Part shown: positions 45,275 to 61,699 of the stretch, one piece after another
How positions within the stretch are numbered: the stretch's first letter is position 1
Layout: every line of letters begins with the position of its first letter
Translations under genes and position numbers: made by a program
Source of the DNA: Sedimentisphaerales bacterium
GTDB taxonomy: Bacteria > Planctomycetota > Phycisphaerae > Sedimentisphaerales > Anaerobacaceae
NCBI GenBank assembly: GCA_035528395.1
Contig: DATKYR010000119.1
Location: 1,702 to 65,701 of the forward strand
Length of the DNA: 64,000 nt
Reading direction: 5' to 3'
The notes under the pieces: model-generated
What the model was told of the DNA's origin: nothing
The model's input: the letters and a program-made list of their open reading frames with translations, nothing else
Databases searched by the model: none

Positions 45275-46330
45275 TCAGAAGCCATTATTTTCCTGGTGCT
45301 CGCCGTTGTCACCGCTTCGTGGATGTGCGTTTTCATATACGTCTTTGAGCTTTGTTGTCGTAAGATGCGTGTAAATCTGAGTCGTTGACAGCGACTGATG
45401 ACCGAGCAGCTCCTGGACACTTCTTAGGTCCGCACCATTGTTTAACATATGCGTTGCAAAACTGTGACGCAGGGTATGTGGGCTGATGGCCGGGTCCAGT
45501 CCTGCCATCTTAAGATATTTGTCCATCTTACGACGGACGCTGCGGGTGCTGAGCCGTTTGCCGTGTTTGTTGACGAATAAAACTTTGGAATCAAAATTGC
45601 CGTTATTTTGTGCCCGTTTATTCCTGAACTCCATATAGTGCTGAATGACCTGCAAGGCGGATGAGCCGATAGGTGCGATTCTTTCCTTTTTGCCTTTGCC
45701 TCTGACATGCACGATCTCGCCAAGGAAGTCTATATCATCCATATTTAGCGCTACAAGCTCGCTGACTCTTATGCCGGTGCTGTAAAGCGTCTCCAGAATG
45801 GCTCTGTCTCTGGCACCGAGCCAGTTATCCTGTGGTGGCGTATCGAGTAATTTCTTTACTTCTTCATACTCAAGAAATCGCGGCAGCTTCTTGTCCTGTT
45901 TTGGAGTTCTGACGGCTACTACCGGATTGGAGGTGACCTGGTTTCTTTTAACAAGGAACTTGTAAAAGCTCCGCAGGGTAGCCAGTTTGCGGGCTATGGT
46001 CGCTTTGGAATACTGCTTCTCATTAAGAAAAGCAAGATAAGCCCTGACGACATCTGTCCCTGCTGAAAGAAGTAACTGGTCGACTTTCAGATTAACGTGT
46101 GTTGCCACGGCCGTGGCCGAGCCACCCTGTTCCTCTGTCGGTGACATCAACTCGGTATGCGGCGGGCTGCCGATCGACTCGGTATGCAGCGGTCTGCCGT
46201 CAGAAAAACCAATCAGAAACTCACCATACTGGTTCAGGTCGGCGCCATAACATTTGGCTGTGTGCTCGGAGAAACGCCTTTCAAATCTCAGGTAATCTAA
46301 AAACTTTTGGACTGTTGTACTTTCTTCCAT
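45275..46330 (-). CDS. tyrosine recombinase, XerC/XerD family
   Basis: Motifs ARDRAILETLYSTGIRVSEL, HTLRHSFATHML, LLGHQSLSTTQIYTH (R..HxxR..Y catalytic set). The N-terminal SAM-like domain carries an insertion with a 27-nt tandem duplication. Confidence 0.85.
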   Translation of the reverse strand: MEESTTVQKFLDYLRFERRFSEHTAKCYGADLNQYGEFLIGFSDGRPLHTESIGSPPHTELMSPTEEQGGSATAVATHVNLKVDQLLLSAGTDVVRAYLAFLNEKQYSKATIARKLATLRSFYKFLVKRNQVTSNPVVAVRTPKQDKKLPRFLEYEEVKKLLDTPPQDNWLGARDRAILETLYSTGIRVSELVALNMDDIDFLGEIVHVRGKGKKERIAPIGSSALQVIQHYMEFRNKRAQNNGNFDSKVLFVNKHGKRLSTRSVRRKMDKYLKMAGLDPAISPHTLRHSFATHMLNNGADLRSVQELLGHQSLSTTQIYTHLTTTKLKDVYENAHPRSGDNGEHQENNGF

Positions 46331-48884: not shown

Positions 48885-49829
48885 TCATCCTATTGCTCTG
48901 ATAATTCTTGTTCTTATACCTGCCGGTTTGGCGCCTTCGGGCACTATACAATTGACAGCCTGTGGTATCACCTTGATTTGTACGGGCAAAGTCGGCCCAG
49001 GGTCGCCGTCAATTTCAGTCATTATTGAACCGGTGTCGGAGCTTACAAGAATGTTTTTGCCCTGCCGATAAATAACATCGCCGGTATCGGCATGGTGCTT
49101 GAGGACAGTCATCACTGAATGCTTGACCAGGTGAAGCTGAGAGGCACATTTATAAACGCACACGTCCAGCAAACCGTCGCTGAAATCGGCATAGTGCAAT
49201 ACCTGAAGGCCTACAGCATATCTTGAAATGTTTCCGACAAAAACCAAACCGGGGCCGTCGAAAATCTCTTCTCCGTCAACCTCTACTTTCATAGGGTCAA
49301 ATTTATAGTTCCAGAACGTTCGCCATATCGGCCAGAAATAATCGAAGTGGTCTATATGTCCCTTTCGCTGCTCGCTGACCCGTTTGACCACTTCGCCGTC
49401 GAATCCAAACCCGGCTATAGAAGTAAAACATTTCCCATTTGCACTTCCTAAGTCCAGAGGCCGAATGTATTCTGCTTCAAATGTCCTTATTATTGTTTTT
49501 AGTTTTTCATCAAAACCTAATTCATTTGCCAGCAGATTTTCCGTTCCGTGGGGTACTATCAGCAAAGGCTTGTCACTGCCTTCCAGGCCGTGCGCGACCT
49601 CTCTGACGGTACCGTCACCGCCGACAACGACGACCATTGCACAGTCGTAATCAATCGCTGCATCGGTGGCCAGTTCACAGGCATTTTCCAAAGAAGTGGT
49701 CAGACTAACCCTGACCTCGAATCCCCTTTTGACGAGGTATTGCTCAAATCGGCGTCCGGTCAATTTACTGCCGGTGGCGCCGGACTTGGGATTTACGATA
49801 GAAGCAATGTAACCATCATCCGGTTTCAT
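48885..49829 (-). CDS. diacylglycerol-kinase-family lipid kinase (YegS/BmrU-like)
   Basis: Has the VVVVGGDGTVREV nucleotide-binding motif. Overlaps the upstream CYTH gene by 4 nt. Confidence 0.8.
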   Translation of the reverse strand: MKPDDGYIASIVNPKSGATGSKLTGRRFEQYLVKRGFEVRVSLTTSLENACELATDAAIDYDCAMVVVVGGDGTVREVAHGLEGSDKPLLIVPHGTENLLANELGFDEKLKTIIRTFEAEYIRPLDLGSANGKCFTSIAGFGFDGEVVKRVSEQRKGHIDHFDYFWPIWRTFWNYKFDPMKVEVDGEEIFDGPGLVFVGNISRYAVGLQVLHYADFSDGLLDVCVYKCASQLHLVKHSVMTVLKHHADTGDVIYRQGKNILVSSDTGSIMTEIDGDPGPTLPVQIKVIPQAVNCIVPEGAKPAGIRTRIIRAIG

Positions 49830-50413
49830 AATTGCGGCTCTGAGCTTTCATAATAAACTGCCTTGTCCTCTTTGTTCTGCTGTTGGAGTTGCTCCTTCAT
49901 CAAGGCCGCATAGCTTTTCGCAATGTGCGGCAAATCAGTCAGTCCCAAACTCTTTTGCACAGTGGTTATTTTTTCTTCGTCATGTCCTTCTATTTCCACA
50001 AAATCACCTAACAGTGGCAAGCGGTCCAAAGCAACTTCGCAATCACCAAGCTGCCAAACGCAACGTTTTTTTTCGATAGCCAAAACCTGCTCGTACCCTA
50101 ATGCCGAAAGCAGCTTGCGGACTGAATCGGCGTCCTTGATTTCGAATTCTATCTCCTGCCTTCTTTTGAAGTTGCTTTTTTCTTTGGTGCCTTTATAAGT
50201 CAAAAAAAAGCTCTCGCCTTTTCCAACCATTTGCTTGCGTAATCGAAGACATCTGTCGCTTTTGGTCAGTATTGAATTTACATCATCAAAAAAGCAATCA
50301 ATCTGTAGCTGCTCTGCTTGGAACTCAGCACCGAGGCCGGTCAGCTTATGCTCTATTTCCTCTAACGAATCAACCTTTAGCTTCGCTTCGATCTCAGTAG
50401 GCATCAGTTCCAT
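49826..50413 (-). CDS. CYTH-domain protein (triphosphate tunnel metalloenzyme; class IV adenylate cyclase/triphosphatase-like)
   Basis: N-terminal ExExK signature (TEIEAKLKV) and alternating charged beta-strands (RLRKQ, LTYKG, RQEIEFEI). Confidence 0.75.
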   Translation of the reverse strand: MELMPTEIEAKLKVDSLEEIEHKLTGLGAEFQAEQLQIDCFFDDVNSILTKSDRCLRLRKQMVGKGESFFLTYKGTKEKSNFKRRQEIEFEIKDADSVRKLLSALGYEQVLAIEKKRCVWQLGDCEVALDRLPLLGDFVEIEGHDEEKITTVQKSLGLTDLPHIAKSYAALMKEQLQQQNKEDKAVYYESSEPQL

Positions 50414-50416
50414 CCA

Positions 50417-51913
50417 TTATTTATCTTGATGATGTTTCTGCACAGCTTCAATAAAACCTGTAGGATTAACAATCGGGCCTGCATCCGTCTGCACAGCAGT
50501 TTCGACCCACAACTTAACAATTGTTTTAGGTTCGATTTTCGGGTCAACCTGATAAGCCAAACCAGCAAGACCCGCCAAGTATGGAGCCCCCCAGCTCATT
50601 CCACCGGTTCGATCAAATGTGTACACATCCGGCCCATGGTAGCTTGCAATTGTCCTGTTACCCGCAGGTACAAGAAGAATATCAACTGCAGAACTGTATC
50701 TTCCCCGTCTGTAGCTCAATGGATTATCAGGGTCTTTACCTGGAATGCGGACAAGTGTGCCATATATGAGGAAGTCAGAGTGGTCACAGGTTACGACTAA
50801 TAAACCATTCTGCTCGGCCTTGGAAAGAGTCTGCTGCCAGTGGTTGAAGTTAGCCTGCTGAGAAAACTTGCCTGTCGAGATGCTCACCACTCGAATCTGT
50901 TCAGACACATCTCGATTCTTGTTGAGCTCGATGATTTTGTTGATGACGTCACAGTATGGCTGGTTATCCCCCTTCCACAGCGATACGGCGAAATAATGAA
51001 GCGAGGCTTTTGGCGCAACGCCGCACGTCTTTCCGACGGCAATACTGGCCACGGCCGGCCCATGCATCTGGGGAGACGCCAACTTGGCTAAATCCACTTC
51101 TTCATATTTCACCAATTGCTCTGCGTATTCCCGGTGGTTCTGCAATAAATTCCCGTCAATGATAGCGATCCTCACACCCCGGCCATTTACTCCCTGCTCA
51201 TGTAGGCGCCGAACACCGAGTCCCGGATTCTTCCCTTCTTCAAGCAAACGAATTGGATCGAAGCCGTCAGGCAACCTGCCAGAGCCGGGCCAATTCGTTC
51301 GGCTGTCAAAAGGCATCTTCTCAAGCAGTTCTGCATGGGCTTTCAGATCGAGGTTGACCAATGATACGCCTGCATATCCCCAGAAAGTATTAAACTTTGT
51401 AAGGTCATTCTCATTCCTCAATACAATTGTCCGATTCGACCCAACATTAACCGGCATACTATTAAAGAAATCCGTGAGAATGTCAGTCCGGATACTCTTG
51501 CCGCCTATGCCGCCTATTTTCATATACTCAAGGGTGAATGGCGCCGAATAGCCCTCCACTTTAGCAAATGCGGCTCTAACACCAGGCCAGTCGAGTATGC
51601 GCCTCTGCATAGCACCACCGTCATTTATGGTGGTTTCTGTTAAAGGAGTCCCAAGCATACTCTCAATCTCTTCCGGTACAGTTAGTCTGTAAGCGAGTTT
51701 CCCTTCTGAGGCAGCGGAACGAACGAGTTCTACCTTCCTGGTATCCACAGGGCTGGATGGCATGCAATATCCTAATGCAATAAGAGCACACAATGTTATA
51801 AATCCGAATATGGCAAGAAGCCAAAATGCGGCTCGTCCTAATATCTTGATAATCTTAAATGATATTCGTAGAAATTTGGAAAGGGTTCCCATCTTAAATA
51901 TATCCTTCCACAT
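50417..51913 (-). CDS. membrane-anchored subtilisin-like serine peptidase (S8 family)
   Basis: N-terminal TM (AAFWLLAIFGFITLCALIALGY). Catalytic-triad contexts: IAIIDGNL (Asp), HGPAVASIAVG (His), GGMSWGAPYLAG (Ser). Confidence 0.7.
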   Translation of the reverse strand: MWKDIFKMGTLSKFLRISFKIIKILGRAAFWLLAIFGFITLCALIALGYCMPSSPVDTRKVELVRSAASEGKLAYRLTVPEEIESMLGTPLTETTINDGGAMQRRILDWPGVRAAFAKVEGYSAPFTLEYMKIGGIGGKSIRTDILTDFFNSMPVNVGSNRTIVLRNENDLTKFNTFWGYAGVSLVNLDLKAHAELLEKMPFDSRTNWPGSGRLPDGFDPIRLLEEGKNPGLGVRRLHEQGVNGRGVRIAIIDGNLLQNHREYAEQLVKYEEVDLAKLASPQMHGPAVASIAVGKTCGVAPKASLHYFAVSLWKGDNQPYCDVINKIIELNKNRDVSEQIRVVSISTGKFSQQANFNHWQQTLSKAEQNGLLVVTCDHSDFLIYGTLVRIPGKDPDNPLSYRRGRYSSAVDILLVPAGNRTIASYHGPDVYTFDRTGGMSWGAPYLAGLAGLAYQVDPKIEPKTIVKLWVETAVQTDAGPIVNPTGFIEAVQKHHQDK

Positions 51914-54501: not shown

Positions 54502-54617
54502 CTGTTTTTACTGCTCCTTATCAATGCAAAAAATGATTCTTTGTTACACAATAAAATAAATATCGGGGGAAATCCACTAAATTCTATAGTTCTCTACGGC
54601 ACGTAATTTGTGAAGTT

Positions 54618-54736
54618 GTCATTGCGAGCACCTGGCCCGATTCTCAGGAAGTATGCAAAAGAAAATAGACCAACAATGTCATTGCGAAGGAGCCCCGCAC
54701 CAATTGAGCTTAAGCTCAGGCCTAATTGGTGCGGGG
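54618..54736. repeat. GTCATTGCGA direct repeats (54618, 54678) plus a 13-bp hairpin CCCCGCACCAATT / AATTGGTGCGGGG
   Basis: Hairpin arms are at 54693-54705 and 54724-54736. The GTCATTGCGA motif is shared with family A. Confidence 0.65.
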
Positions 54737-54854
54737 CGACTGTGACAATCTCAATCCTCACAACATGAAAACCATTTATTTTCTTAGGAGGCCTTTGAAA
54801 AAAGCCGTGGCAATCTCACAGTATCAAAACAACAGAGTTTTTGGCTTAATATGA

Positions 54855-54888
54855 ACGTAGTACTTTTCGTTAAAGAAAAGTACTACGT
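54855..54888. other. perfect 14-bp hairpin ACGTAGTACTTTTC-gttaaa-GAAAAGTACTACGT
   Basis: Seen directly. No adjacent T-run on either strand, so it is not a typical terminator. Confidence 0.6.
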
Positions 54889-54952
54889 GCATCTTATACC
54901 AGTTGCAGTTAAAAATTGCCGATAAAATTGCATATTATTTTAACTGGACGGG

Positions 54953-55125
54953 CCTGGATTCCACCTTTCGGGGCTGTTGAAAAAGGCCAAAAGAAACGTT
55001 TTGAGATTGCCGCGCGATTCTTCGAATCGCTCGCAATGACATAAAACGCATTTTGCGTCATTGCGAGGAATGTAATGACAAAGCAATCTCGACTTTTTCA
55101 AAAGGTCCTTTCGCAGGAATGACAA
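54953..55125 (+). repeat. interspersed intergenic repeat, family A, copy 2
   Basis: Aligns along its whole length with 898..1071 with only scattered substitutions. Confidence 0.85.
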
Positions 55126-55345
55126 GTCAGGTAACTCGCTGCGACCAGCCGTGCCGAAGCCATTCGCCGCGTTGCGTCGCAACAGGCGTCTCGGCAGGTG
55201 CGTCGCATCGGGTCGACAATCTGTAAATAAAATTGGTATTAGGTTTCAATTAGATATAAAGGATAAATACCAATCGTATAAAAGTAAATATGCTCGATGT
55301 CGGCGGTTTAATGAGATGACTGCTTGTCCATGTGGAGCCGAGGAT

Positions 55346-56950
55346 TTAACGCTCCCACATTCCATCCGGACGGACGTGGAGCACTTCCGTGTCACGATAA
55401 AATTTTAAGGTCGCAATAGTATAATCGACCAGAGATTGCGTAGCGGCATCCTGGGCGTTAAACAGGTCGTCCTGGGCGCTGAGCACACGGCGGCTGCTTG
55501 CTCGGCCGTACTGAAGCAGTAGAAAGGTATTTTTAAAGCGTTTCTCAGCCAGTATGAGGCTCTCTGACTGCACTTTATAGCGTTCAGCCGCTTCGGAAAG
55601 GTCGCGGTAGGCCTGGCGCACCTGGAGCCTGACCATATCAGCGGCCTGGTCGTACTCTCGCTGTCGTTGGTTCAACGTTATCAGAGCTTTGCGATAAACG
55701 TGCTGTTCGGGCACCCTGTCCAGGGGTAAGTCAAGTTCAAAACCAACGTCATAGTCCTCTCTCAACCATCCCAGTGTCTGGCTATTGGCTCGTCTTGCTG
55801 AAATAGCATTGGCACTGCGAACCAGGTTTAACTCGGCACGCAGGCTGTCGGCGGCAACAAAAACTTTACGCTGGGCATCGATGACGGCATCAGCATTGTT
55901 GGCCAGGTCGAGACGCCGAAGCAAGGCGGTTTCGATGACCTCTGCCTCAGCAAAATCAGGCTCAACTCTCTCCGCAGCCCTTAAAGCTTCAAGCTCACCA
56001 TCGTCTAATTGGAATTCTGCCGTCGTGCGTAAACTCAGAGTTATCTTGAATTCATCAAGTGCCTGTTTGTATTCTTTTTCTGCCTGAATACAGGTATCTA
56101 ATGCGCGCATCTTATCCTGGCGAACCCGGTCCAGCTCGAACTGAGGCACACGTCCTGCGTTGGCTAATTTTTCGACCCGCTCATAGACCCTGTCCAGGGT
56201 ATTGTAATTTCGATGAGCATTTTTTACTGAATCAAGCCGCTGCAAAACCCCGTAATACTGACTGATAATCGAGACCACGAATGTTTTACGGAACCGGTTG
56301 AATAACCGCACCTGATACAGCGTGTCACGTTCAGCTTGAGTTAGATTTTCCAGGACGACTCTGCGGTCGCTGCCGCGAAGCAAAGGTTGTATTACGGTTA
56401 TGTTTAAGAGCGAAGCCAGGCCGCCCCGCAGATTACCGGTAAACACCTCGGCCCAGGCAGCAGCAAGATTTACACTGATGCTGGTCCCGTTGGCTAACAA
56501 TTGGTTAAAACCATAATTTGCTTCAATCCCCAGTACCGCATCATTGCGGTCAGCCGAATATCCAATCCCTGCCCCACCGAAAAACTGCCTTTCAAACTCG
56601 TGACGGGTCAGTCGCAGGTCCAGGGCTTTGATGTAAAGCGCTTCTTTTTGGGTCTGATATTCACGATTGTGAGCCGTCGCAAGCGCTACAGCCTGTGAGA
56701 GACTCAGAATGCCGGATGCGGGGACGGCTTTTTCAATTTGGATGTCATTTGGTGAGGGCGCAGTGTCACTGACCTTGTAGTTAACTTTGGTGCCGAAATC
56801 TTTCCGCCATTTTTTGTCGATGATGTTATAGACTTTTTCGTCAGCTTCCTTTTTATAGTTATGCTGAATGCACCCGGTCAAACTACACAAACAGACAAGG
56901 CCGCATATAATAAAATAAGCTAACTGTTTGGTAAAATTATTGCAAATCAT
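55346..56950 (-). CDS. TolC-family outer membrane efflux protein
   Basis: Has a lipoprotein-like signal (LCSLTGC). The two-fold repeated helical/beta architecture is typical of OEP proteins (LSLSQAVALATAHNREYQ..., ...AQDAATQSLVDYTIA). Confidence 0.8.
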   Translation of the reverse strand: MICNNFTKQLAYFIICGLVCLCSLTGCIQHNYKKEADEKVYNIIDKKWRKDFGTKVNYKVSDTAPSPNDIQIEKAVPASGILSLSQAVALATAHNREYQTQKEALYIKALDLRLTRHEFERQFFGGAGIGYSADRNDAVLGIEANYGFNQLLANGTSISVNLAAAWAEVFTGNLRGGLASLLNITVIQPLLRGSDRRVVLENLTQAERDTLYQVRLFNRFRKTFVVSIISQYYGVLQRLDSVKNAHRNYNTLDRVYERVEKLANAGRVPQFELDRVRQDKMRALDTCIQAEKEYKQALDEFKITLSLRTTAEFQLDDGELEALRAAERVEPDFAEAEVIETALLRRLDLANNADAVIDAQRKVFVAADSLRAELNLVRSANAISARRANSQTLGWLREDYDVGFELDLPLDRVPEQHVYRKALITLNQRQREYDQAADMVRLQVRQAYRDLSEAAERYKVQSESLILAEKRFKNTFLLLQYGRASSRRVLSAQDDLFNAQDAATQSLVDYTIATLKFYRDTEVLHVRPDGMWER

Positions 56951-56973
56951 ATATTTGGTATTTGTTCCCGTAA

Positions 56974-57071
56974 GGGCGGTTCACGACTCATGCTACGTAG
57001 TGATTCATCCTTCGCAGTCCCGATTTTCTCAGGACGGAGAACAGAGTTACCTCACAGAGTAGTAACCGCCC
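56974..57071 (-). other. structured intercistronic spacer closed by GGGCGGTT / AACCGCCC
   Basis: The 8-bp GC-rich arms at 56974-56981 and 57064-57071 enclose about 82 nt between the hlyD-like stop and the tolC-like start. The palindrome CTACGTAG lies inside. Confidence 0.4.
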
Positions 57072-57073
57072 GA

Positions 57074-58249
57074 CTACAGTCTGCGTATCCCGACCACCTC
57101 ACCTATTATCAGCTTCATTTGAGGTGGAGCTTTCACCAGGAACGGTCGTCCCCACTCGGGAACGTTTGGATTTCGCCACAGCCGTGCCGGTAATTGTTCC
57201 ACAATCGGCCCGATATATATTATCTGCGAACGTGCAATCTCAATCTTTTCTGGCTCGCTCTTTTTGACGAGTTCTACAACCATTCCTTTTTGAATTTGAT
57301 TCACCTGGTCTTCGACGGCGTAGGCGATGATTTCAGTCGGCTTAACCTCTGCGATTGTGAGTATCGGCTCACCTGCTAAAACAGCTTCTCCAGGCCAACG
57401 TTGAATCTGGCTGACCACACCGTCAATTGGAGCCGTTAGCTTTAATGCCTCCCGTGGCACTAATGCCTCAATTTGTACTAATAATTCGTCCATCCGTCGT
57501 TCCTGAATCTTTATTGCTTTGCGGATAACATCCAGAGCATCCTCTACTGATGGATGGTGTGGTTTGTATCGGGCATATTCGTCCCACCGCTGCTGAGTTT
57601 GTTTGAGGGCGGCTTTCGCCTGCTCCAGTAGTTGCTCATTTTCCTCAATCTTTTTTGCCAGAGTCTCGTATTGGACATTTGCTTTCTGCAGCTCATAAGG
57701 CGCAACGGCCTCCTGTGCCAAAAGCTCCTGGACGGTTTGTACTTCCAGGGCCAGGTCTTCTAACATTATTTTGTCGGTTTCAATTTGTGCTCTGAGCCTT
57801 AGTATCTCAAGTCTGGCATTTTCCACGTCAACTGAAAATCTTCTACCGTCGCTGAGACGATTGGTTTCCCGGTCGTTTTTTTCAGCGAGCAGGTCGTCCT
57901 GAGTCGGGACTAATTGTGCCGTCAGGTGTTCTATTTCCGCTAAAATAACGGACAATTGTGCCTGCAACCGGGTCCGTGGTTGTTCATTATCGACTATAGT
58001 ATCAACCACAGCCACCGGTTGTCCCAGGCTGACTTGCTCAAACAATTGAACAGGCACGCTTTTCAGCCGTCCCGTGCAGTTGGCTGCTATCTGACGTACC
58101 TGTCCCTGGGCTATGCCTAAGACTTCAAAACGTCGTGAGCGACGAGTGAAAAGCCCGACCACGCATGCGACGACGCTCAACCACACCAAAATAGGCAGGA
58201 GGTGCCGACGTAAACGAGAAAGATAACTTATGGGGCTTATTATTTTCAT
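57074..58249 (-). CDS. HlyD-family periplasmic adaptor (membrane fusion protein)
   Basis: Single N-terminal TM (LLPILVWLSVVACVVGLF), a long coiled-coil hairpin, and lipoyl/beta-barrel-type segments (GQPVAVVD..., LTAPIDGVVSQI, GMVVELV). Confidence 0.8.
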   Translation of the reverse strand: MKIISPISYLSRLRRHLLPILVWLSVVACVVGLFTRRSRRFEVLGIAQGQVRQIAANCTGRLKSVPVQLFEQVSLGQPVAVVDTIVDNEQPRTRLQAQLSVILAEIEHLTAQLVPTQDDLLAEKNDRETNRLSDGRRFSVDVENARLEILRLRAQIETDKIMLEDLALEVQTVQELLAQEAVAPYELQKANVQYETLAKKIEENEQLLEQAKAALKQTQQRWDEYARYKPHHPSVEDALDVIRKAIKIQERRMDELLVQIEALVPREALKLTAPIDGVVSQIQRWPGEAVLAGEPILTIAEVKPTEIIAYAVEDQVNQIQKGMVVELVKKSEPEKIEIARSQIIYIGPIVEQLPARLWRNPNVPEWGRPFLVKAPPQMKLIIGEVVGIRRL

Positions 58250-58256
58250 ACGTGAC

Positions 58257-58955
58257 TTAGACCTCCAGCAACCGTTCCTGCATTGTCAGACTGATATTTT
58301 CGAGGCCTTCGACTTGTTGCAGCTCGGACAACATCTGTTGGTTTTTTGCGGCATTTCTTATCATCAACTGATAGGCGTATTCGACTTCGGCGGTGCCAAA
58401 GCCGCTCTCTTGCGCCGAGATGAGGGTGAAACTGCCGCAGAAACGTCTCAGGATAGCTGAGATTGGGCTGTCGGGCCCAATATGGCCCCTGAAACTAAAC
58501 CGCAAAAAGCCGTTGTGCGGCTGATGAGTACCGAAGCCGGTCAGATGCAAATATATTACTATTAAACTCAGAATAATGGTCCCGACAATGGCGACTGCGT
58601 AGCGCTGAGAGCCTGCTGCCATGCCCACAACCAGTGAACAAAAAATGAAGGCTATGTCTCTGGTGTCTTTGATAATGTTGCGAAAACGTATAATCGCTAA
58701 AGCACCCATCAGCCCGACAGCGGTGATGATACTGGTACCGATGACAGCCATAACCATTGCCACGACGACGGTGATTAGAACCAGTGATTGGACAAAGGAT
58801 TTTGAATAAGACAGACCGCTATGAGTGAAGTAATAAACCCAGGCCAGGACCTGTCCGAGAACAAAGGCAAGCAGCAGTGACAGGAGAACTGCCTCGGGTG
58901 TAAAAACCCCCCCTGCTGAAGGTGTATCTTGCAATATTTGCCAAATTCTATCCAT
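58257..58955 (-). CDS. DUF4956-family multi-pass membrane protein
   Basis: ALAIIRFRNIIKDTRDIAFIFCSLVVGMAAG is the family-typical core, as I recall it. Has four to five TM segments. The start is taken at MDRIWQ (58953-58955), 5 nt after the upstream stop. The track start at 58985 would overlap the upstream gene instead. Confidence 0.75.
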   Translation of the reverse strand: MDRIWQILQDTPSAGGVFTPEAVLLSLLLAFVLGQVLAWVYYFTHSGLSYSKSFVQSLVLITVVVAMVMAVIGTSIITAVGLMGALAIIRFRNIIKDTRDIAFIFCSLVVGMAAGSQRYAVAIVGTIILSLIVIYLHLTGFGTHQPHNGFLRFSFRGHIGPDSPISAILRRFCGSFTLISAQESGFGTAEVEYAYQLMIRNAAKNQQMLSELQQVEGLENISLTMQERLLEV

Positions 58956-58960
58956 AATTA

Positions 58961-59851
58961 TTACACCACTAACCGGGGTGCACAAAACTTTAACAAACAG
59001 GATTCTTTAATTGAAGAAGCATACTTTGAAATTGATTGCTGCCGTAAGTTGAAACACTTGACCATCCGGTTCAGCCAAACAGGGTAATGGGCGGTAAACT
59101 TGACTTCCAAAATAACGCCGCCCAAAGTAAAAGAATTACGCTGCCAGGCTCCACCGGCAAGTCTGACTTCGGGCAAGCTGGTAACATGGTAAGCAAGCTC
59201 TCGGTCGAAGGTTACTCTTACTCTGTTTTCCGAACCGCCTTCGTATGCCTGCCGAGTGTAACGAACTAATACCGCAGGCCTGGCTCTGATGTTGTTCATA
59301 TAGAACTGGAATTGATTGATTGTCTCGGTGTCGGCGGTATAATTCTCTGGCGGCAGAGGCGAGCCTGCAAGCAAAGTTGTCACATCGCTGTGCATAACGC
59401 GGGCCCTGCTTTTCATAATAATAGTGTTTATCCGGCGCTTAATCTCAAGAAAGCGTGGATAGTCTGGTTCGTCAGTGTAGCTGCGGATTCGCAGCTTGAA
59501 GCGATTTTTATGTCCTCCGAGGCTCTCTCTGCAGAGCTGCAGGTCATCCGAATCCAGATAGAGACTCACAATCGGATAATCACCGCTTCGATGCAATTTA
59601 CAGTACCGATCCCGTTGCAAGTATGGCTTAATAAACTGGGCTATCGCCTCGGCCTTTGACTCACTAATATGATATTTCAGCTCGTGTCGGCACCTGAGAG
59701 TACGGTCGGTCAGCTTATCCGGTATTTTTACCGTGCTCGCTTTGTCTTTGCGGTAGCGAGGGCCGGTATTCCCCCCGTTAGAAGGGGTCTTCGACTGCCC
59801 GGAAGTCTGTTTTATTGATTTACCCTCAAACATAATAACCTTCGTTATCAA
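58961..59851 (-). CDS. VTC-domain (polyphosphate-polymerase-like, CYTH/triphosphate-tunnel superfamily) protein
   Basis: Motifs RHELKYHIS, IVSLYLDSDDL, RFKLRIRSY, RFLEIKRR, VRVTFDREL, VILEVKF, SISKY follow the alternating-charge strand pattern of VTC domains. Confidence 0.75.
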   Translation of the reverse strand: MITKVIMFEGKSIKQTSGQSKTPSNGGNTGPRYRKDKASTVKIPDKLTDRTLRCRHELKYHISESKAEAIAQFIKPYLQRDRYCKLHRSGDYPIVSLYLDSDDLQLCRESLGGHKNRFKLRIRSYTDEPDYPRFLEIKRRINTIIMKSRARVMHSDVTTLLAGSPLPPENYTADTETINQFQFYMNNIRARPAVLVRYTRQAYEGGSENRVRVTFDRELAYHVTSLPEVRLAGGAWQRNSFTLGGVILEVKFTAHYPVWLNRMVKCFNLRQQSISKYASSIKESCLLKFCAPRLVV

Positions 59852-60151
59852 AACAATTAGTATTGAAGGATGTGGAAATTGTTAACTTTATTTATTTCAG
59901 GAACTTACGGCCTGAGATATCTGTTAACGGACGTTTATCATGCTCGACAATGCACAAGGCCGGTTTTCTGTTACGTTGACCCTGCTTTTGTACCGCTTAG
60001 AACTAATATCCAAATCCAGAATTTTACCTATTCTAACATATATAAGGTGCTTAAGTCAATACCATTTTAGTTCTAATAAATGTCCTAACGATTATGGGAC
60101 TTTGTTTGAGAGCCTAATTTACTTCTGCCCCACTGATGGGCTAAGCAGCAA

Positions 60152-60178: not shown

Positions 60179-61699
60179 TCAACCACACATTTTGGAATTG
60201 TGGGACCGTTTCTTCATTCGAAAAGGTATCAACTGAGCTGTCAATAAAATTATCAATCCAACACATACGCTTAGTGTGGTCCAGGTAATCACAGCCGAAA
60301 TCATCAACACCAACCATACTGACACTTGCATACCCGGTACGGGCACACACAGTTTGGCACTGAGTTTATGCCAACGCCATGTTCTATAGATAGTGGCAAG
60401 CACTTCATAAACTCCCAGGCATATAAAGAGAGTAATGACAACATACACGGACAAAGGTAGCTTGCCTTGTTCGGCCACCACTCCCATATCGACCGACCCG
60501 CGTGTGAGCACAAATAGCACAGCGGCTTCGCCAAGATATGGTGCATCAGATAGATTTGACAACATACGAGGCGCCAGCAGTGTCCCATTCGGCAATGGCC
60601 ACGAGCCGACTATAGCTTGCCCAGTAAGCGTATATGCATGGTCAAACCGTCCCATAGCCCTTGCAGCCCCGATACCGAAGGCACTTGCTGCAATACCATA
60701 GCCACCTACGACGGGCCCGGCATCCACGTCATCTAATGCAAACCATCCCACATCGACATCCTTTGGATACTCCCTAAACCCGGCCAACCATCGCCCCTGT
60801 TGCCAAAACTGTTCCTCATATTTGGCATACCATTCGCGGGCGGTTTCCGGCCACAACTCAGGTGCCCAGATAAGCATGAATGACAATCCTACGCCGCGAG
60901 CGCTGTCTTTGGCATGTCCTGTCTTTGAATCGACAAAATAGGCGGGCAGGTCCGTATCTTTGTCAAGACGTGTCTCCTGAAACCCGCGAATCGCGCGGGC
61001 GGCAAAATCAGCATGGTCGGTGCCCAAAACCACATCCGCCCGCCGAATTGCGGCGATCGCGGGCAGTACGTCAACAGGGTAGCATTGGCCGGGATAATCG
61101 TCCAATAGTCCATACGGAGATTGGTCGAGCTCGCTCGACAGCGATTCCACCTGGCTACGCAGGAGCTCTTCATATCTTGTGTCACCACAAAGCTTCTGAT
61201 AACTGGTCAATCCGCTGATTAGCAACATCCTGTAGAACAGATTCTCCTTCTCAAGGTAGGCATCCCCCCAGTGATCTTTGACCCAGCTTGCATGATTGGG
61301 GTCAGCGACCAGAGCTGCGGCCGCCTCTATCACGCCTCGTGCATAGTCCCTCGGCGCAGACGACGCGAGCGTCGGATTCTCGTTGAATGCTCCCTGCAGT
61401 GCCTCAGTCGCCCACAGATAGAACACTGAACCAAACATCGGCCATTCAGTTCCGGATATGTTCTCAGTAGTCAGCTTCGTTGCAGACTTTGATTCCACAC
61501 GTTGTCGGGCCCATTTCTCGTACCTGGAGGAGAGTGCTTTATGCCAGCGAAACACACAATGTGGCATTTTGTCGCTGTACAGGCCCGGATCTCGCAGGTC
61601 GTGAATCAGCATCCCGGCCAGGATAAGCAAAGCGTACGCCGACAGGAAAATCATGATAGCGGCATTGATATTGACACACAATGTCAATCGCTTCTTCAT
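60179..61699 (-). CDS. hypothetical integral membrane protein with a large extracytoplasmic alpha-helical domain
   Basis: N-terminal TM (AAIMIFLSAYALLILAGML) and three C-terminal TM segments. No catalytic motif recognised. Confidence 0.6.
   Translation of the reverse strand: MKKRLTLCVNINAAIMIFLSAYALLILAGMLIHDLRDPGLYSDKMPHCVFRWHKALSSRYEKWARQRVESKSATKLTTENISGTEWPMFGSVFYLWATEALQGAFNENPTLASSAPRDYARGVIEAAAALVADPNHASWVKDHWGDAYLEKENLFYRMLLISGLTSYQKLCGDTRYEELLRSQVESLSSELDQSPYGLLDDYPGQCYPVDVLPAIAAIRRADVVLGTDHADFAARAIRGFQETRLDKDTDLPAYFVDSKTGHAKDSARGVGLSFMLIWAPELWPETAREWYAKYEEQFWQQGRWLAGFREYPKDVDVGWFALDDVDAGPVVGGYGIAASAFGIGAARAMGRFDHAYTLTGQAIVGSWPLPNGTLLAPRMLSNLSDAPYLGEAAVLFVLTRGSVDMGVVAEQGKLPLSVYVVITLFICLGVYEVLATIYRTWRWHKLSAKLCVPVPGMQVSVWLVLMISAVITWTTLSVCVGLIILLTAQLIPFRMKKRSHNSKMCG

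Follow-up and report, generated by a model that had tools for sequence, protein, structure and literature searches.

A VTC-DUF4956-adaptor-TolC operon in a Sedimentisphaerales bacterium: a candidate envelope-spanning module for polyphosphate export

Background

In eukaryotes the VTC complex (Vtc4/Vtc3 or Vtc2/Vtc1; structures 3g3q, 7ytj and 8i6v) couples the synthesis of polyphosphate to its translocation (7ytj, 8i6v), with the vacuole lumen as destination. To our knowledge no dedicated bacterial polyphosphate exporter is known, and bacterial synthesis is attributed to PPK1 and PPK2 only. Here we describe a stretch of 64,000 nucleotides (nt) from a Sedimentisphaerales bacterium (assembly GCA_035528395.1, contig DATKYR010000119.1), referred to below as the window, in which four co-directional open reading frames (ORFs) on the minus strand, at 55346..59851, encode a VTC-domain enzyme, a DUF4956 membrane protein, an EmrA-like periplasmic adaptor of the membrane fusion protein (MFP) type and a TolC-type lipoprotein. 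We propose, at roughly even odds (a probability of about 0.5), that the four genes form one operon for a dedicated envelope-spanning module in which the first three, the triad, are the core and TolC completes the path in this lineage, and that the module would export polyphosphate driven by its polymerisation.

The enzyme of the window belongs to the same tunnel fold family as Vtc4 and shares its catalytic and tunnel residues and, as in the eukaryotic complex, it is paired with a small polytopic membrane protein, so that a similar coupling of synthesis to translocation may be expected. Unlike the eukaryotic enzyme it is soluble and a protein on its own, to which neither an SPX domain nor a transmembrane (TM) domain is fused, its partner is DUF4956 (five predicted helices and an ACT-like domain) and not Vtc1/DUF202, and the destination of the polymer would be the periplasm or the exterior, by way of the adaptor and TolC.

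The second half of the operon resembles EmrAB-TolC, HlyBD-TolC and MacAB-TolC, with an adaptor made up of a TM anchor, a lipoyl domain, a long alpha-hairpin and a beta-barrel, and a TolC-family lipoprotein encoded in the same operon. Unlike those systems the operon encodes no MFS, ABC, RND or PET transporter; DUF4956 stands where the pump would be, with the VTC enzyme ahead of it. Adaptors of the EmrA/HlyD class serve inner-membrane partners without large periplasmic domains. The alginate (Alg8/Alg44/AlgK/AlgE) and cellulose (Bcs) systems share the concept of an inner-membrane polymerase, a periplasmic partner and an outer-membrane exit with transport driven by polymerisation, and Alg44 has an MFP-like domain, but this is analogy and not homology: here the exported polymer would be an inorganic one, the operon lacks a glycosyltransferase, a PilZ/c-di-GMP receptor and a TPR scaffold, and the exit is of the TolC type, not a beta-barrel porin.

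The VTC and DUF4956 pair is also found, together with a CotH kinase gene, as an accessory cluster of Gram-positive pel loci (10.1101/768473), and the same set occurs in the NELoc-2 locus of Clostridium perfringens (PMC2879425). In Streptococcus intermedius, deletion of the DUF4956 and CotH genes reduces Pel-dependent aggregation; the authors described an MgtC-like TM domain and an ACT domain and did not find the three-gene synteny outside pel loci (PMC12345266). Bacteria are known to display polyphosphate or to release it, and this affects host cells and predators (for example PMC10653871, PMC7423913). In the literature that we searched no dedicated bacterial export route is described, no paper joins a polyphosphate polymerase with HlyD, and none deals with VTC-domain genes in Planctomycetes; the initial annotation of this DNA knew of no earlier account of the combination, and we likewise found no description of it.

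Materials and Methods

Relatives of the locus were collected by scanning one genome per species, which gave 282, and the best 80 of the 282 were retained. All 80 are metagenome-assembled genomes (MAGs) of Planctomycetota, mostly labelled Phycisphaerae or Sedimentisphaerales, and their VTC proteins are 56-94% identical to that of the window. Gene order was censused by tblastn, with the genomes that have sufficient downstream DNA as denominators for the triad, and locus counts were based on tblastn together with the called genes of each record. VTC relatives numbered 4808 at 50% clustering in an exhaustive HMMER search, and nine distant VTC representatives (33-43% identity), one of them from an Acidobacteriota MAG, were examined individually. 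Further metagenome contigs were sampled with the Acidobacteriota VTC protein as seed. The scan of the window for pump genes covered ORFs of at least 250 amino acids (aa).

Results and Discussion

Gene content and order

The operon contains the following features, in order of transcription.

60030..60059, minus strand: promoter-like site, TTGACT-18 nt-TAGAAT with TG (consensus scan, 10 of 12 matches)
58961..59833, minus strand: VTC-domain (Vtc4-like) tunnel enzyme, predicted polyphosphate polymerase, 290 aa (Pfam PF09359)
58257..58955, minus strand: DUF4956 membrane protein, 232 aa, ATG start, proposed inner-membrane conduit (Pfam PF16316)
57074..58249, minus strand: EmrA/HlyD-type periplasmic adaptor, 391 aa (Pfam HlyD_3 and HlyD_D23, both above cut-off)
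56951..57073, minus strand: spacer between adaptor and TolC genes, 123 nt, a long imperfect hairpin with no U-tract (by folding)
55346..56950, minus strand: TolC-type (outer-membrane factor, OMF) outer-membrane lipoprotein, 534 aa, accessory exit channel (Pfam OEP PF02321)

The VTC stop codon lies 5 nt from the DUF4956 ATG, the DUF4956 stop 7 nt from the adaptor ATG, and 123 nt separate the adaptor and TolC genes. These spacings, like the coordinates of the four genes, reproduce exactly those of the initial annotation, which had also named the first two products as VTC-type and DUF4956; both names are borne out by profile matches above cut-off (see below). For the VTC gene the interval 58961..59851 is indeed the longest ORF, with a TTG start, and the likely start is instead the ATG at 59833. 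The promoter-like site, a sigma-70-like match to consensus only, lies about 200 nt upstream of the VTC start, within a non-coding gap of 327 nt.

No ABC, MFS, RND or PET/FUSC transporter was found in the operon or among the scanned ORFs of the 64-kb window, and no ABC, MFS or RND transporter in 12 related neighbourhoods annotated with Pfam or among the recurrent neighbour clusters. The absence of a canonical inner-membrane pump, first remarked for the operon, thus extends to its surroundings and to its relatives.

Conservation of the linkage

The VTC, DUF4956 and adaptor genes are contiguous on one strand in all 79 of the 79 species-level Phycisphaerae genomes of the census. Their flanks vary among relatives, with homoserine dehydrogenase next to leuS (the arrangement of the window), a giant upstream CotH gene, an upstream hisS gene, or a sulfatase context. 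Since the order of the three genes stays the same while the flanks change, the triad survives rearrangement. A TolC gene follows the adaptor gene in 49 of 64 Phycisphaerae loci, across two different upstream contexts, and we therefore regard the triad as the core and TolC as accessory.

The same order, VTC, then DUF4956, then an adaptor of 369-434 aa with an N-terminal TM helix, is present in nine of the nine distant representatives. There the genes overlap by 1-41 nt or are separated by very short gaps, as expected for subunits of one complex, and the adaptors are homologous to that of the window over the full length (24-31% identity), from which it follows that the three genes travel together. 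The neighbourhood survey that the initial annotation had called for hence finds the HlyD adjacency to be universal in relatives and to reach another phylum; of the four-gene unit that it described, the triad is constant, and TolC is present in about three quarters of the Phycisphaerae loci and in none of the nine distant ones.

The architectures met among the contigs sampled beyond the relatives were these.

L096, L097, L099, L100, L102: VTC-DUF4956-adaptor triad, on metagenome contigs seeded from the Acidobacteriota protein
L107: CotH-VTC-DUF4956 in a sugar-biosynthesis cluster, no adaptor
L095, L101, L103: VTC without adjacent DUF4956

The triad is thus widespread and is not the sole architecture of the VTC family.

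An adjacency due to chance or hitch-hiking, in which the HlyD and TolC genes would be parts of an ordinary efflux pump with its transporter gene at another locus, has in its favour that transporters can be unlinked from their adaptors in some genomes. Against it, the linkage is kept where both flanks have been rearranged and is found in at least two phyla; neighbouring genes either overlap or have 4-10 nt between them, and the adaptors of different triads are orthologs. We hold this explanation to be very improbable, and chance juxtaposition can be regarded as effectively excluded.

Further genes recur beside the operon in relatives. In at least 13 Phycisphaerae relatives TolC is followed, on the same strand, by a conserved gene (for example L039:5988-7103 and L004:14601-15719) whose product of about 371 aa has no Pfam family; the window lacks this gene, which could be an additional accessory component. 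In the hisS context a convergent secretin gene and a DUF3616 gene lie downstream, and in the TolC-less loci L043, L046, L047, L054, L062, L067 and L070 the adaptor is followed by such a convergent secretin gene (Secretin, Secretin_N, STN) and the DUF3616 (phytase-like) gene.

The VTC-domain enzyme

The VTC protein matches Pfam PF09359 with an E-value of 4e-39 and 135 bits (cut-off 23) over profile positions 2-232 of 235. The 290-aa product that starts at the ATG (59833) has a 100% identical counterpart in the database, from a Sedimentisphaerales MAG. It is soluble, without a TM segment, and net basic (49 K+R against 28 D+E), and VTC is its sole domain; an SPX regulatory domain was not found in it with Pfam. 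A single-sequence search of the PDB gave an E-value of 0.28 and was not useful, and a profile was required: a profile of 36 diverse bacterial VTC homologs matches the catalytic domain of yeast Vtc4 (3g3q, 8i6v) at 5.6e-15. The aligned residues (window protein = Vtc4) are as follows.

Window VTC = Vtc4: R49=R196, K53=K200, R115=R264, R117=R266, K132=K281
Window VTC = Vtc4: Y192=Y359, R194=R361, R206=R373, E243=E426, K270=K458

All ten of these tunnel and catalytic residues are invariant in the 36 bacterial homologs, the window protein among them, so the alignment to Vtc4 that had been suggested as a check finds every one kept. The first acidic residue of the ExExK motif of CYTH hydrolases is replaced by arginine (R49), as in Vtc4 (R196). 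On this evidence the enzyme would make polyphosphate from nucleoside triphosphate (NTP).

The DUF4956 membrane protein

DUF4956 is the sole polytopic membrane protein in the module. It scores 50.5 bits against PF16316 (cut-off 30.6), which is matched by 16 of 16 members, orthologs and distant partners taken together, and a profile search returned 3380 proteins. Its median identity among Phycisphaerae relatives is the highest of the four products, at 79%, compared with 64% for VTC, 61% for TolC and 52% for the adaptor. From Phycisphaerae to Acidobacteriota one loop does not vary (residues 90-100, RFRNxxKDTRD), and by the positive-inside rule the loop and the ACT-like domain would face the cytoplasm.

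An AlphaFold2 (AF2) model from a 37-sequence alignment has a mean predicted confidence (pLDDT) of 66, with about 80 in the C-terminal domain, and consists of five helices (residues 20-138) followed by a beta-alpha-beta-beta-alpha-beta ACT-like domain. Foldseek with this model gave weak matches, all to ACT-type domains, including the C-terminal domain of MgtC (2lqj, E 0.046). A single-sequence search of the PDB yielded nothing useful, and a profile search of it nothing meaningful and no match to Vtc1 or the VTC TM chains. Against MgtC (PF02308) the protein scores 20 bits, below the cut-off of 31.4, and sub-threshold matches of this kind are seen in 9 of 16 members; the JGI label for the protein is YhiD-like. 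The predicted architecture, five helices and a C-terminal ACT-like domain, may resemble that of MgtC/SapB/YhiD proteins, and what sets DUF4956 apart from them is the RFRNxxKDTRD motif and the obligatory VTC and adaptor partners, with a score that stays below threshold.

This possible likeness raises the question of whether DUF4956 is instead an MgtC-like regulator of phosphate or energy homeostasis that senses a ligand through its ACT domain, with polyphosphate kept inside the cell and the adaptor and TolC recruited for unrelated efflux. The sub-threshold similarity and the ACT-like domain would fit such a role, in Salmonella MgtC has an effect on ATP synthase and PhoR (cited in PMC12345266), and the phosphatase and phytase neighbours described below would suit a phosphate regulon. 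It leaves unexplained the invariable coupling to an EmrA-type adaptor (79 of 79 and 9 of 9 loci, with no pump gene), and we consider it improbable. That DUF4956 is the inner-membrane partner of the adaptor, as the initial annotation had supposed, is well supported by comparative genomics because the HlyD adjacency is universal, no dedicated pump lies in the Pfam-annotated flanks of relatives, both protein families match their profiles and the tunnel residues are kept.

The adaptor, the spacer and the TolC-type protein

The adaptor scores far below the cut-offs of the NCBIfam models RND_mfp, EmrA and type_I_hlyD. Its AF2 model (pLDDT 82) shows an N-terminal TM helix, a lipoyl domain, a long hairpin and a beta-barrel, without a membrane-proximal domain; the hairpin arms are about 80-90 residues long (helices 90-178 and 184-263). 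The best Foldseek matches are EmrA (4tko, E 9e-18), EmrAB-TolC (8zar) and MacA, with MexA and HlyD also matched.

The TolC-type protein matches OEP (PF02321) in two stretches with an E-value of 5.5e-22 and carries an N-terminal signal peptide and a lipobox (SLTGC). It falls below the cut-off of TIGR01844 and had no match in a single-sequence search of the PDB, and it is for these reasons taken as a divergent member of the OMF family.

The spacer that precedes the TolC gene has a minimum free energy of -41 kcal/mol and is more stable than its shuffles (z = -3.4), in agreement with the structured spacer first noted. Among close relatives the hairpin is common to the window and L009 only. Spacers in the remaining close relatives are unrelated to it and 12-228 nt long, and the hairpin is therefore probably a small, mobile palindromic insert and not a core part. 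A conserved regulatory role was considered and rejected since the hairpin is kept in one close relative only, and no Rfam family was found in the operon region.

Polyphosphate might be made by the triad and delivered to the periplasm only, or remain membrane-associated, with the adaptor acting as a scaffold or co-polymerase and TolC a later addition or one that serves another purpose. Such an arrangement is consistent with the loci that have no TolC beside the triad and with the MFP-like domains of co-polymerases such as Alg44. The adaptor, on the other hand, has the long TolC-reaching hairpin of EmrA/HlyD, and 49 of 64 loci, in two different upstream contexts, have TolC within the operon; moreover, a tolC gene often lies apart from the genes of its pump, E. 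coli being an example. We judge delivery to the periplasm only to be unlikely, while less so than a regulatory role of DUF4956.

Association with CotH kinases and secreted phosphoesterases

Many relatives among Phycisphaerae and other Planctomycetota share CotH with the Gram-positive pel and NELoc-2 clusters. At least 12 Phycisphaerae loci have a CotH gene fused to the operon, as have 6 of the 9 distant triads (there CotH-LTD), a recurrent link that the initial annotation had overlooked. It ties the operon to the uncharacterised CotH-VTC-DUF4956 clusters of Gram-positive bacteria, of which S. intermedius SIR_1594/1593/1592 and C. perfringens NELoc-2 share the VTC and DUF4956 pair with the window. 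The Gram-positive clusters, in contrast, are monoderm, have no adaptor or TolC and adjoin pel, whereas the window locus has adaptor and TolC, no pel and, by tblastn over the 64 kb, no CotH homolog. Contrary to the earlier report (PMC12345266), the CotH-VTC-DUF4956 synteny is widespread in the genomes sampled here.

Giant CotH kinases of up to 1593 aa (with LTD, Fn3_assoc and CHB_HEX_C_1 domains) adjoin the triad in L045 (4859-9640, plus strand), L059, L060, L080, L087, L088 and L090-L093. In L107 (2473-10871) CotH, VTC and DUF4956, without an adaptor, lie among glycosyltransferase, methyltransferase, epimerase and aminotransferase genes, a setting reminiscent of the pel association in Gram-positive bacteria and a hint that the trio may take part in modifying surface polymers.

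The CotH proteins carry Sec-type signal peptides, and the neighbours of the Acidobacteriota locus include phytase-like and purple acid phosphatase genes. Recurrent neighbours that act outside the cytoplasm (Sec-signal CotH-LTD, phytase-like/DUF3616, purple acid phosphatases) fit a product that leaves it, and the frequent linkage with Sec-exported CotH and other secreted phosphoesterases suggests that the product of the module acts outside the cytoplasm. Secretion of CotH itself through VTC-DUF4956-adaptor-TolC was considered and rated low, as CotH has Sec signal peptides.

A broader alternative is that VTC and DUF4956 form a novel type of energising unit in the inner membrane that hydrolyses NTP or triphosphate, and that the cargo is not polyphosphate and may be the giant CotH-LTD proteins, cations or a small molecule. 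The CotH fusions just described, the presence of triphosphatases in the CYTH superfamily and the formal resemblance of the architecture to a type I secretion system speak for it. The Sec-type signals of CotH and its absence from the window count against it, as do the arginine in place of the first acidic residue of ExExK and the retention of all the polymerase residues. We find an energising unit doubtful, and somewhat less probable than delivery confined to the periplasm.

Proposed mechanism and its weighing

Under polymerisation-driven export, the soluble, basic VTC protein would dock on the cytoplasmic face of a DUF4956 oligomer, with the invariant RFRNxxKDTRD loop and the ACT-like domain as the likely points of contact. 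Polyphosphate would be polymerised from NTP in the VTC tunnel, as in Vtc4, and the growing chain would pass through DUF4956 into the duct of the membrane-anchored adaptor and leave by TolC to the cell surface or the medium. Translocation would be driven by polymerisation and not by an ABC ATPase or an MFS/RND pump that uses the proton-motive force; the VTC enzyme would, like the eukaryotic VTC complex, be the source of the substrate as well as of the driving force. The whole would amount to a synthase-dependent secretion system for an inorganic polymer, in which DUF4956 holds the pump position of an EmrAB-TolC-like assembly.

Several points weigh against this proposal. The literature searched yields no biochemistry for bacterial VTC-domain proteins or DUF4956, and the chemistry of VTC is not proven since CYTH-family tunnels also include hydrolases and cyclases. 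The DUF4956 model is of moderate confidence (pLDDT 66), the protein is unrelated to the Vtc1/DUF202 channel, and its remote relatives MgtC and YhiD are not known as channels. Beside the triad, TolC is missing from 15 of the 64 loci in Phycisphaerae and from every one of the 9 distant loci, and some distant VTC genes have no adjacent DUF4956 or adaptor gene (L095, L101, L103, L107). Finally, the sole genetics is the aggregation effect in S. intermedius (PMC12345266), and in the preprint version of that study its authors guessed that polyphosphate remains in the cytoplasm (10.1101/2024.04.20.589940).

A further extension joins the module to the CotH kinases. The triad, with or without TolC, might be a fourth type of envelope-spanning exporter, one driven by polymerisation in place of an ABC, MFS or RND motor. 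It would secrete polyphosphate as an energy-rich phosphoryl donor for the secreted CotH kinases that the operon often includes, and bacteria would so possess a complete means of phosphorylation outside the cytoplasm, where ATP is lacking. Polyphosphate as the donor for an extracytoplasmic kinase is an appealing though speculative notion, and we offer the extension as a tentative idea, about half as probable as export itself.

Neighbouring genes

The remaining features near the operon, or elsewhere in the window, are listed here.

60179-61699, minus strand: 506-aa membrane protein gene between homoserine dehydrogenase and the operon, with one N-terminal and about three C-terminal TM segments
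54502-55345: 840-nt non-coding region between TolC and leuS, with four perfect-centre palindromes or hairpins, repeated TCGCAATGAC-like words and no Rfam match
49826-51913, minus strand: S8 subtilase gene, inserted between leuS and the CYTH gene
45275-46330, minus strand: tyrosine recombinase/phage-integrase gene, a few kb downstream of the leuS-CYTH block, with a similar integrase in L058
31180-32898 and 33012-34730, minus strand: Na/Pi-cotransporter and PhoU-domain genes (YjbB-like), tandem paralogs that adjoin NfeD and FloA genes

The 506-aa protein was considered as a fifth component and rejected: it has no Pfam or NCBIfam family and is present in one other locus only (L010), so it is not taken to be part of the system, and its gene has the look of an insertion specific to the lineage. 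The CYTH gene and a DAGK/NAD-kinase-like gene come directly after leuS in relatives. The functional links that the initial annotation had ventured from the operon to this second CYTH gene and to the two Na/Pi-PhoU transporters are not supported. The CYTH gene follows leuS in relatives whatever the context of the operon and is thus a conserved neighbour of leuS, not of the operon, and the link to the Na/Pi-PhoU genes is unsupported as both lie more than 20 kb away.

Conclusions

The central proposal of the initial annotation, still a hypothesis, has such support as computation can give. Among tripartite envelope machines the system is a new version whose inner-membrane unit is non-canonical, and it could turn out to be categorically new if polyphosphate export were shown. 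If the proposed export is correct, the module would be a candidate polyphosphate exporter and its enzyme a third bacterial polyphosphate synthase, and DUF4956 would gain an assigned function. It would also explain the CotH-VTC-DUF4956 clusters of streptococcal pel loci and of the NELoc-2 pathogenicity locus of C. perfringens, and the tripartite envelope machines would be extended to one that works without a classical motor.

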